Assembly: GCA_010093705.1 (NCBI GenBank)
Contig: MU006093.1
Location: 1,199,301-1,263,300, forward strand
From: Patellaria atrata CBS 101060
Taxonomy: Eukaryota
Reading direction: 5' to 3'
DNA: 64,000 nucleotides
Below the pieces are notes generated by a model. It saw nothing but the letters and a program-made list of their open reading frames with translations, was not told the origin of the DNA and searched no databases. Positions 25,250 through 27,780 of this stretch are shown piece by piece. Numbering within the stretch: the stretch's first letter is position 1; the number at the start of each line of letters is the position of its first letter. The position numbers were made by a program, and so were the translations under genes.

Positions 25250-25810
25250 CTACGAAACCCCATGACCAAAGAGCGTAATGAGCCTTTTGAGGGTAGAACC
25301 GATATCATCCGCACTGAGTGCCTGGCGTTCGTGCTTGAGCCAAATAGGAGAGAGCAGCACAGTAACCATCTCATAGATATCGGACACATGTTCGTCATCA
25401 CCAGAACCTCCTCCTATACATTCAATACTGAGTCGACATGCCCCTCTAGGCTGACCGAAGGAGATCTCCAGGATCACAGACCCAAATTTCGGGGACCGGT
25501 TATCAACGAGGATGATTCTTATCGTATTTAAGTCGTCTGAATGGCAGCCCAAAGATTCAATCCAGGTCTGAGCAGCGGGATAGAACAAGGGAAGAGAACC
25601 CAAGAAAAATTTGTTGCGGTGATAATACATGGACAGGCATTCATTGCGCATCTGAGAGCAGACCTGGCTCATGACTGGTGGGTTCACACGACGCGGCCAT
25701 GTCACTGGGACTATCTGATCCACTGGCATGGATTCTTCATAAATCTGGTTCCGGATCTCCGCAGGAAGGCGAAGTAGCGACATGGGTTTGGGACAAGCTG
25801 AAGTTTCCAT
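25250..25810 (-). CDS. Fungal protein with an N-terminal F-box-like motif
   Basis: SLLRLPAEIRNQIYE...PVMSQVCSQMRNECLSMYYHRNKF is a common filamentous-ascomycete F-box-like signature. Confidence 0.65.
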   Translation of the reverse strand: METSACPKPMSLLRLPAEIRNQIYEESMPVDQIVPVTWPRRVNPPVMSQVCSQMRNECLSMYYHRNKFFLGSLPLFYPAAQTWIESLGCHSDDLNTIRIILVDNRSPKFGSVILEISFGQPRGACRLSIECIGGGSGDDEHVSDIYEMVTVLLSPIWLKHERQALSADDIGSTLKRLITLFGHGVS

Positions 25811-26509
25811 CTTTTGACCGTATACTGTGTCAAAGAAGGTATCCTTGCGTTACAATGGCGGTAATCACAATTTCAGCGAATCAGAGAAACTTTTATTGTG
25901 AGGTAGAAGAAATGGATCTCTGCTTTACACTTCACGCAAAGCTAGTTCTATAATTTATGGTATGGGAATAGAGATAAGTGATACTCAAACAAGAAAGCGA
26001 GAATGGTACTTATGATGAAGGACTGACGTTCAGGAGAATAACAAAGAAACCGTCCGCAACTGGGACACACGTCCTTAAATTTATCGCACAGTGCGCAGCT
26101 CGCGTGGCCTGAATCTATTTCCCCGTACGAATACGAGCTTGCTATCGGAGAAGATCCGCGGTGTTGAGGATCGTTCCACTCTGTCTGGCTTCCTGGCAAC
26201 ACGGTCGGAAGCTTTTGAGCTCTCTGGCTGGCTGTTCAGGCCCAAGTAAGGCTGAAAATGCAAGCGATTTGTATGCTAGGCCTTCTAGCTGACAGCAGCA
26301 AACATCATCTGCTCCACTGGCTATCGGTTATCTTTGCCCTATTCGATTGACCAAATGGCGAGACCAGTATGGGCTTTCATCCATCTTCGATTATGGTTAA
26401 GATGCTGTTGTGCGGTTATCAGTCCGAAAAAGTATCGTTAAAAACCATAACATGAAGTCAAAGACAGCTCCCGTGTATATACAATTGGATTAACAACTAT
26501 CATTTGCTT

Positions 26510-26534
26510 AAAAAAAATAAAAAAAATTGCAAAA
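26510..26534 (-). terminator. Putative Pol III oligo-T terminator
   Basis: Minus strand reads TTTTGCAATTTTTTTTATTTTTTTT just after the UUCG hairpin. Confidence 0.55.
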
Positions 26535-26680
26535 CAGTTCCCACCCCTCCGAAGAGGGTGTGGTACATCTGCTGCCCTCAACTTAAGGCCCGAGATATGG
26601 GGGCTTTTTGCCCCTAGGGGAATCGACCCCGGGGTTGTCTAGATATCCCCAGTGGTCATTACCACTAGGCTACCCCGGGA
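26535..26680 (-). ncRNA. Candidate Pol III-transcribed, tRNA-derived structured ncRNA (not a canonical tRNA)
   Basis: TTATAAG ~30 nt upstream, A box TAGCCTAGTGG (26672-26662), B-box variant GGTCGATTCC (26628-26619), several hairpins including CCAC-A-CCCTC-TTCG-GAGGG-GTGG, then TTTT and T8-A-T8 terminator runs. Confidence 0.6.
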
Positions 26681-27105
26681 GATGTTAAGTGGTTCTCGAA
26701 TTATTGCTTATAACCTTACTGATGGGAAATCTGCTCCGGTATACAGCACGAGTGCCAAGGTAGTCACGTGGAGAGTAAATAGTGACTTAACTCACGTGGT
26801 AGTCATTATATTTACACATGTTAACTGGCTAGGCTATTACTTCAAAATCTGGCTCATGCACTCTACAGATGAATTGATTCATAGCAGAATTTAGAATTGT
26901 TGACCGGCGATTCCAGGTTAGGAGAAATCAATCGGTGTCCGATTAGACGATAAGTTCCTTATCGATAAGAGGTCTCCCTTAGATACTGAGCTTGGATCAT
27001 TCCGCCCGCTAAGGTAAGGAATATATGGGATCACACTTGTAAAATGCCCCAGCAATTCCATGCCATACTGTCAGATAAGGTAAAGTCCGTCTACTGTCTA
27101 TCAGG

Positions 27106-27780
27106 ATGCGGACAAGTACAACACTTGCCGTAGCAGCGCTATCCAGTATCGCATTTCCCACGCTGTACCTACTCTACGTTCGGCGAGACTTATCACGAAA
27201 GATCCACCATGAAGCGCAACGCGGGAAGCTCTCCCCATCGATAACAGACGCAGTCAAATCCATCCCAGACGAAGCAATCGCAGAGGAATGTCCCATGGTA
27301 TATGAGTGCGCATGGAAAGCGGTATCTACATCTCTCCTCCCGGATATCGCAAGGGAGAAACTGCTCGTTCAATACCTTCAGCGAAACATGACCAAGTTCT
27401 CCGCGTCACCACAGGCATTTGCGATTAAACGTATGTGCTCACCGCAGGTTCTCAAAACATTCGAGCGAACGTATATTGAGTCTTTGGGATTTTTGGAAGC
27501 TAGCCTTGTCTGTGGAGTTTATCAGGTTCAGCTTAGGGGAGAAGATAGGATAGAGCTTTCGATGGAAACTCATATGCCGTTCAGTGGCCGCTTGGTCGTT
27601 ACTGTCGAGGAGAGGGACGGGAGGACCGTCTTCGGTAACCATGTGGTACAATGGAAGCAGCCTGGGGAAAAAGCGTCAATGCCACTGGAGGGCACTGTAG
27701 CTACATGGATCCATCAATTCTTTGTTTGGTGGCTACTGGATTCAGGGACGAAACATTTTATAAATCTCAAGAAGTCATGA
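27106..27780 (+). CDS. Fungal hypothetical protein with an N-terminal hydrophobic anchor
   Basis: Intronless 224-aa ORF with N-terminal TM segment and protein-like motifs (YLQRNMTKFS, SGRLVV, MPLE...WIHQFFVWWLLDSG). Confidence 0.75.
   Translation: MRTSTTLAVAALSSIAFPTLYLLYVRRDLSRKIHHEAQRGKLSPSITDAVKSIPDEAIAEECPMVYECAWKAVSTSLLPDIAREKLLVQYLQRNMTKFSASPQAFAIKRMCSPQVLKTFERTYIESLGFLEASLVCGVYQVQLRGEDRIELSMETHMPFSGRLVVTVEERDGRTVFGNHVVQWKQPGEKASMPLEGTVATWIHQFFVWWLLDSGTKHFINLKKS

Follow-up and report, generated by a model that had tools for sequence, protein, structure and literature searches.

A tRNA-derived repeat with a T-rich tail in Patellaria atrata, probably one copy of a dispersed SINE family

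The locus and its genes

The window, that is, the whole stretch of 64,000 nucleotides (64 kb) of Patellaria atrata CBS 101060 analysed here, is gene-dense and has a G+C content of about 47%. Its long open reading frames (ORFs) match carnitine acyltransferase, SelO, VTC, fatty-acid desaturase, P450, FMN dehydrogenase and the 2EXR family, and the nearest Atlas clusters of the SelO ORF are mostly from Ascomycota. Judged from this coding content, the window is fungal nuclear DNA of ascomycete type.

The element discussed here lies on the minus strand between two ORFs. One neighbour is an ORF of the 2EXR family (25250-25810, minus strand); the other is an unnamed ORF of 224 amino acids (27106-27780, plus strand), which has no Pfam match and is situated about 430 nt from the 5′-end of the element. 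The unit itself is short and non-coding, spanning 170-194 nt (26510-26680 or 26510-26703), with no ORF of more than 47 amino acids on its own strand. No LINE adjoins it within the 64-kb window.

An earlier note on this DNA had written out the minus-strand sequence of 26510-26715, which is present exactly as given, and had proposed an undescribed RNA without a tRNA cloverleaf. Over the whole 64-kb window, ARAGORN finds 0 tRNA genes and Rfam gives 0 matches at gathering thresholds. The same note favoured a resident, undescribed Pol III non-coding RNA (ncRNA) gene, and offered a “SINE master locus” as its second option.

A tRNA-like head with internal promoter boxes

The 5′ part of the element is a tRNA-derived head of about 64 nt (26617..26680, minus strand), made of an outer stem of 8-9 bp around a 9-bp hairpin, and present about 5-8 times in the genome. 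If T 26680 is taken as position 1 of the minus strand, an A box (TAGCCTAGTGG, 26662..26672) starts at position 9 and a B-box variant (GGGTCGATTCC, 26619..26629) starts at position 52, both on the minus strand. The A box fits the consensus TRGCNNAGTGG, while the B box has a single difference from its own consensus, GGTTCGANNCC, with a G at the first T. In an intronless tRNA gene the starts of the two boxes are about 44 nt apart; in the element they are 43 nt apart. An A-B box pair separated by a gap of 25-45 nt occurs once in the 64 kb and in none of 100 dinucleotide shuffles. The earlier claim of A and B boxes at tRNA spacing is therefore well founded, and the tRNA-derived head, the type-2 Pol III promoter layout and the T-run that it described all hold on sequence.

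Could the head simply be a tRNA gene? This candidate was rejected: there is no cloverleaf, ARAGORN calls nothing, and the Rfam tRNA model has no match at E<=10, either on 601 nt or on the 91-nt head alone. At the same cut-off (E<=10) the other Rfam matches are all chance ones, the best having E 0.53-3.5 and belonging to miRNA or bacterial families. The T-arm region of the head may resemble that of acidic-residue tRNAs. Outside the element, a low-scoring match to the model of the type-P3 twister ribozyme (26406-26452, plus strand; 16.3 bits vs a gathering threshold of 39.9, E 2.6) was also taken as chance.

Upstream of the head, a leader of 23 nt (26681..26703, minus strand) runs from a candidate upstream duplication to the tRNA-like start, and is common to some of the copies described below (3.8x at 26678-98, 2.9x at 26699-719). 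It is preceded by a TATA-like motif, TTATAAG (26707..26713, minus strand), which falls within the candidate target-site duplication, 27-33 nt upstream of 26680. The motif recurs in at least two other copies. Upstream TATA elements are used for Pol III genes in some fungi, and the role of this motif as a promoter element is putative.

Hairpins of the body and the T-rich tail

Minimum-free-energy folding of the element gives every helix that the earlier note had drawn by eye, so that its non-cloverleaf multi-hairpin fold with a UUCG loop is recovered in full. In the head, the predicted fold pairs an outer stem (26672-79/26628-35) and, inside it, the 9-bp hairpin (26648-69). The body that follows, about 75 nt long, is made of three hairpins, all predicted on the minus strand: a GGGGC-AAAAA-GCCCC hairpin (26600..26614), which is a dispensable module; a two-tier hairpin (26565..26598), with AUAUCU/AGAUGU outside and GCCUU/AGGGC inside; and a terminal hairpin (26541..26563) with a G+C-rich stem and the UUCG loop, which is repeated more often and conserved better than any other part of the family. 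The whole element folds at -67.4 kcal/mol (z -2.61), and 2 of 200 shuffles are as stable. The head taken separately has a z of -2.22 (5/200 shuffles as stable), the UUCG hairpin a z of -2.79 (2/200), and the 3′ domain the lowest z, -3.45 (0/200). Beyond the terminal hairpin, the element ends in a T-rich tail, T4-GCAA-T8-A-T8 (26510..26534, minus strand), presumed to combine a Pol III terminator with a SINE tail.

A dispersed repeat of some tens of copies

The number of copies was estimated from the contigs of two public runs, X1 and X2, which contain 0.98 and 0.96 of the sampled words of 26300-26900. Both come from one sample, probably the source strain, and probably represent DNA; they count as one observation. 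The contigs were aligned to 26300-26900 at an identity of at least 80%, which yields 44 matching contigs in X1 and 37 in X2. In both runs the contigs of the locus itself show zero differences from the window sequence. Details of individual copies are taken from the 16 aligned pieces (of 81) and the 12 loose ends (of 39) that were listed.

Each listed contig has approximately single-copy depth (310-475, vs 431 for the flank in X1 and 314 in X2), yet the summed depth in X1 climbs from 431 (1x) in the flank to a peak of 11876 (about 27x) at 26552-72. Read from the 3′ side, the relative depth in X1 is 1.0x over 26300-26488, and passes from 1.1x below 26510 to 10x at 26510-30, 20x at 26531-51 and 27.5x at 26552-72. 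It then decreases to 18x at 26573-93, 12x at 26594-614, 7.5-8.6x at 26615-56 and 5.3x at 26657-77, continues at 3.8x (26678-98) and 2.9x (26699-719) across the leader, stays at about 2.1x over 26720-26845 and is 1.1x beyond 26867. The profile of X2 is the same, with 28x at the peak. The share of aligned records that continue into unlike sequence amounts to 0.41 in X1 and 0.51 in X2. Even the error-free contigs of the locus end at 26558 and start at 26556, inside the element, as is usual where assemblers meet a repeat. The 44 pieces of X1 fall into wide identity bands: 12 are at least 99% identical, nine lie at 95-99%, nine at 90-95%, and 14 are below 90%. Single-copy depth per contig, a summed depth of 27x and unlike flanks together show that the element belongs to a repeat family scattered through the genome in some tens of copies.

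This result bears directly on the reading that the earlier note had favoured. A single-copy Pol III ncRNA gene is ruled out by the ~27 copy-equivalents, by identities from <90% to >99% and by insertions and deletions of whole modules. A resident gene is likewise not supported, since the 3′ core has ~27 copy-equivalents and the head 5-8, set among unlike flanks: many dispersed copies, which the note had itself named as evidence against its proposal, are what the genome contains. The chance that the locus is instead the decayed pseudogene of a single tRNA gene, followed by fortuitous hairpins, is practically nil. Such a pseudogene would account for a head that is tRNA-like and does not fold as a tRNA; it is refuted by the many genome copies of head and body together, and the uniform single-copy depth of the contigs argues against their being foreign.

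Within the 64-kb window, blastn with a word size of 7 finds no further copy, the matches being chance ones of 11-21 nt. In metagenome contigs, a collection poor in fungi, there are 0 loci for the invariant 3′ core and 0 for the B box joined with a gap to the UUCG stem.

Modules and variants among the copies

In the other copies the alignment ends at 26510-26530, and each then continues with its own A-rich runs on the plus strand, which are T-rich on the strand of the element. The T-rich tail is therefore a property of the family, variable in both length and sequence. The earlier note had used the T-rich flank as an argument for a resident gene; this argument falls, as the tail belongs to the whole family and T-rich tails are known from other SINE families (PMC6007223).

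The head is also shared more widely than its alignment depth suggests. A B-box motif, GGGGTCGATTCC, lies just upstream of the body in at least six further X1 contigs, five of them clipped at 26614 and one at 26593. Since the same B-box variant is found in heads that align poorly, the tRNA-type head is common to the whole family. In at least one copy, clipped at 26593, the B box is joined directly to 26593, without the GGGGC-A5-GCCCC hairpin. Among the loose ends, those at 26577 and 26546 can be read as diverged forms of the same body, and in at least two contigs a longer loop replaces UUCG while the arms of the stem are kept. Taken together, the wide identity bands and these module-level differences fit subfamilies of a transposable element and not a conserved gene.

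At several positions the present copy carries the minority letter. The other letter makes up 92% of the depth at 26586 (11 contigs), where it turns an inner U-G pair of the two-tier hairpin into C-G; 83% at 26616 (3 contigs); 87% at both 26640 and 26647 (5 contigs each); and 60% at 26667 (3 contigs), where a G-U pair of the 9-bp head hairpin becomes G-C. Position 26667 is also part of the A box, with a T here and mostly a C in the other copies, both of which fit the consensus. In the terminal hairpin, eight contigs have a G in place of the bulged A at 26559, and five have a C inserted opposite this position (behind 26544 on the plus strand), which would extend the UUCG helix into an uninterrupted stem. 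We read this as the trace of an ancestral element with cleaner palindromes, of which the present copy would be a slightly decayed descendant.

Might these hairpins have been kept for a cellular role, with the copies serving as functional Pol III ncRNA genes across the genome, or the present copy alone exapted as one? The boxes are intact, with the TATA-like motif some 30 nt upstream, and the fold is more stable than its shuffles. Moreover, the majority variants tend to improve the pairs at 26586 and 26667, just as the change at 26559 and the insertion behind 26544 extend the UUCG helix. As evidence for selection on structure, however, better-paired majority variants are weak at best, and it is the present copy that has the less well paired ones, which looks like decay from a palindromic consensus, not selection. 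Whole modules differ between copies, and identities range from <90% to >99%. A functional role of this sort is thus very improbable.

Over 26510-26854, there are 20-21 places at which the present sequence has A or T and other copies have G or C (14 A>G and 6-7 T>C), and eight with the reverse, G or C here vs A or T elsewhere (7 G>A and 1 C>T). Repeat-induced point mutation or ordinary decay could explain why the transitions are biased towards A/T.

The edges of the element and its flanks

A 10-nt direct repeat brackets 26514-26703. Its upstream copy (26704..26713; TTGCTTATAA on the plus strand) and its downstream copy (26504..26513; TTGCTTAAAA on the plus strand), which overlaps the end of the T tail, agree in 9 of their 10 positions. 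With both copies free to lie within 80-nt flanks, 12% of random placements in the window give at least 9/10; with the 3′ copy tied to the tail end, 1.2-1.9% (0.012-0.019) do. From its sequence and position, this repeat is a reasonable candidate for a target-site duplication, though post hoc and uncertain. The earlier statement that no target-site duplication is visible was accordingly right only in part, as the unit is flanked by this imperfect repeat. If the duplication is true, the inserted unit would measure about 190 nt, and its tRNA-like part would be preceded by a 23-nt leader.

The behaviour of individual copies at the 5′ edge is mixed. Among the copies listed, one loses its likeness at 26679, exactly at the tRNA-like start, which speaks against the candidate duplication. 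Two others stay alike to 26713 and 26854, that is, through 33 nt and 175 nt of upstream flank, and share a variant at 26707. Because these two also contain 26704-13, they weaken the candidate duplication. They may be segmental duplicates, a long version of the element, or the result of 5′ transduction, from transcripts that started upstream. Nor is there a sharp 5′ edge at the tRNA-like start, where the depth descends in steps (5.3x, 3.8x, 2.9x, 2.1x). A plain Pol III-transcribed SINE does not predict a gradual 5′ edge together with shared upstream flank.

These edges are the reason to consider a longer retroelement, a LINE or a composite reaching to at least 26854, of which the locus would be the 3′ end. 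Its copies would be 5′-truncated tails, and the tRNA-like part an internal module and not a transcription start. The monotonic fall of the depth towards the 5′ side, from 27x to 2x with no sharp step at 26680, would follow from such truncation, as would the copy that is alike up to 26854. Yet the locus is single copy beyond 26854, and the 64-kb window contains neither a second copy nor a long element. Several of the apparent truncations turn out to be diverged body and head, so that the gradient is partly one of divergence, and the B box sits directly upstream of the body in the additional X1 contigs mentioned above (at least six). The locus being the tail of a longer element is for these reasons improbable.

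Two features of the flanks deserve mention in their own right. The ~135 nt upstream of the element (26720-26854) exist in about two genome copies, one contig being about 84% alike over 26630-26854, and contain two CACGTG palindromes (26793-26798 and 26765-26770). On the other side, 26438-26472 is 71% identical, ungapped over 35 nt, to 26508-26542, which is the element's own 3′ end with its tail; it lies 70 nt downstream on the same strand and is single copy at a likeness of at least 80%. Going by this resemblance, it may be what is left of an earlier, truncated insertion into the same T/A-rich site, or a chance likeness. Three short direct repeats that the element shares with its upstream flank, D2, D3 and D5, are not colinear and were treated as chance.

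Relation to known short retroposons

The closest description is that of AfuSINE2 from Aspergillus fumigatus. These tRNA-related SINEs measure 140-493 bp, are low in copy number, and have degenerate boxes, non-cloverleaf heads and target-site duplications of 4-14 bp (PMC5063351). The comparison is by description: both have an ascomycete host, A and B boxes in a non-cloverleaf head, and then a tRNA-unrelated body (PMC5063351). The tails differ, AfuSINE2-1a ending in ACT repeats, with an A/T-rich tail mentioned for AfuSINE2, whereas the Patellaria element ends in T runs (PMC5063351). So does abundance, the ~27 copy-equivalents of the 3′ core exceeding the few copies reported for AfuSINE2 (PMC5063351).

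Other filamentous ascomycetes harbour Mg-SINE, Foxy, nrs1, Egr1 and EGH24, for which the same source gives 11-160 copies per genome; these too are dispersed short retroposons of Pol III type (PMC5063351). With 470-900 bp, they are longer than the unit of 170-190 bp found here, and the head of Mg-SINE is described there as folding like a tRNA, unlike the present one (PMC5063351).

For the tail, the nearest parallels are found outside fungi. The Au-like SINEs of plants, with TTT, TTTTT or T-rich tracts, and the T-rich AfroSINEs are presented as T-tailed and RTE-related (PMC6007223). Compared again by description, they resemble the Patellaria element in being of tRNA type, with a sense strand that ends in a T stretch or T-rich repeat, and their duplications tend to begin with T, as the candidate duplication here also begins in a T run (PMC6007223). 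They differ in that their hosts are plants and mammals and that their 3′-ends are common with LINEs of the RTE clade (PMC6007223).

The Helenus TRIMs, non-autonomous LTR retrotransposons, are likewise short mobile repeats with a tRNA-like Pol III promoter, and they get mis-called as tRNA or ncRNA genes (PMC10886601). Fungal Helenus LTRs of 120-323 bp carry tRNA-like A and B boxes and are often solo, so the element might be read as a solo LTR of this kind; fungal Helenus elements are reported only from Pucciniales and a few Agaricomycetes (PMC10886601). Of the LTR architecture, 5-bp duplications and basidiomycete hosts described there (PMC10886601), none is found at the Patellaria element. A solo Helenus-type LTR is hardly credible here. 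The unit between the candidate duplications is devoid of the TG..CA termini usual for LTRs, the candidate duplication is 10 bp and not 5 bp, no second LTR exists in the 64-kb window, and the copies are edged by a T-rich tract of variable sequence, unlike LTR ends.

A SINE family and its proposed mechanism

With a probability of about four in five, the locus is a short non-coding retroposon, one copy of a family of tRNA-derived SINEs that end in a T-rich tail. This reading is founded on the multi-copy and dispersed nature of the sequence, its identity bands, the differences between modules, the T-rich tails, the A and B boxes and the candidate duplication. Of the “SINE master locus” proposed earlier as a second option, it is the SINE part that stands.

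By analogy with such elements, TFIIIC would bind the internal A and B boxes, and Pol III would start at the head or a few nucleotides upstream and stop in the T runs. A T4 terminator is probably leaky in fungi, as work in yeast indicates, and with a leaky T4 the RNA here would be about 150-165 nt long. A partner LINE would then supply the reverse transcriptase, which would recognise the conserved 3′ stem-loop and the U-rich end and reverse-transcribe the RNA at a nicked T/A-rich target, so that a short target-site duplication would flank the new copy. The 3′-ends of SINEs derive from their partner LINEs (PMC6007223), and stringent LINEs recognise a 3′ stem-loop (PMC5135761). As for the T8-A-T8 tail, it is not simply inherited from the RNA, since Pol III is expected to terminate at the first long T run, and part of it may be target sequence or the product of priming slippage. 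Despite its differences from other copies at 26586, 26616, 26640, 26647 and 26667, the present copy has kept both boxes and, to judge by them, could still be transcribable.

A bolder form of the SINE reading is unlikely, although it has arguments of its own. It would make this an uncatalogued and still active ascomycete SINE family, whose head has refolded to a long hairpin, whose UUCG stem-loop serves as a handle for reverse transcriptase, and which ends in a T-rich tail, with the present locus as the source gene. The intact boxes, the TATA-like motif at about -30 and the two copies that carry 33 and 175 nt of the upstream flank of this locus, as if from transcripts starting upstream, are what suggest a source gene. 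A full-text search with four short motifs did not find the element in print, the papers listed as matches being unrelated in subject; the family may already be catalogued in a repeat library.

The main value of the finding lies in annotation: a repeat that carries a tRNA-type promoter can readily pass for a new Pol III RNA gene or a tRNA pseudogene, and here it is copy number that settles the matter. To the known SINE-LINE partnerships, a T-tailed SINE from an ascomycete would add modestly. If the family is active, its insertions would contribute a little to the variation near genes in Patellaria atrata.
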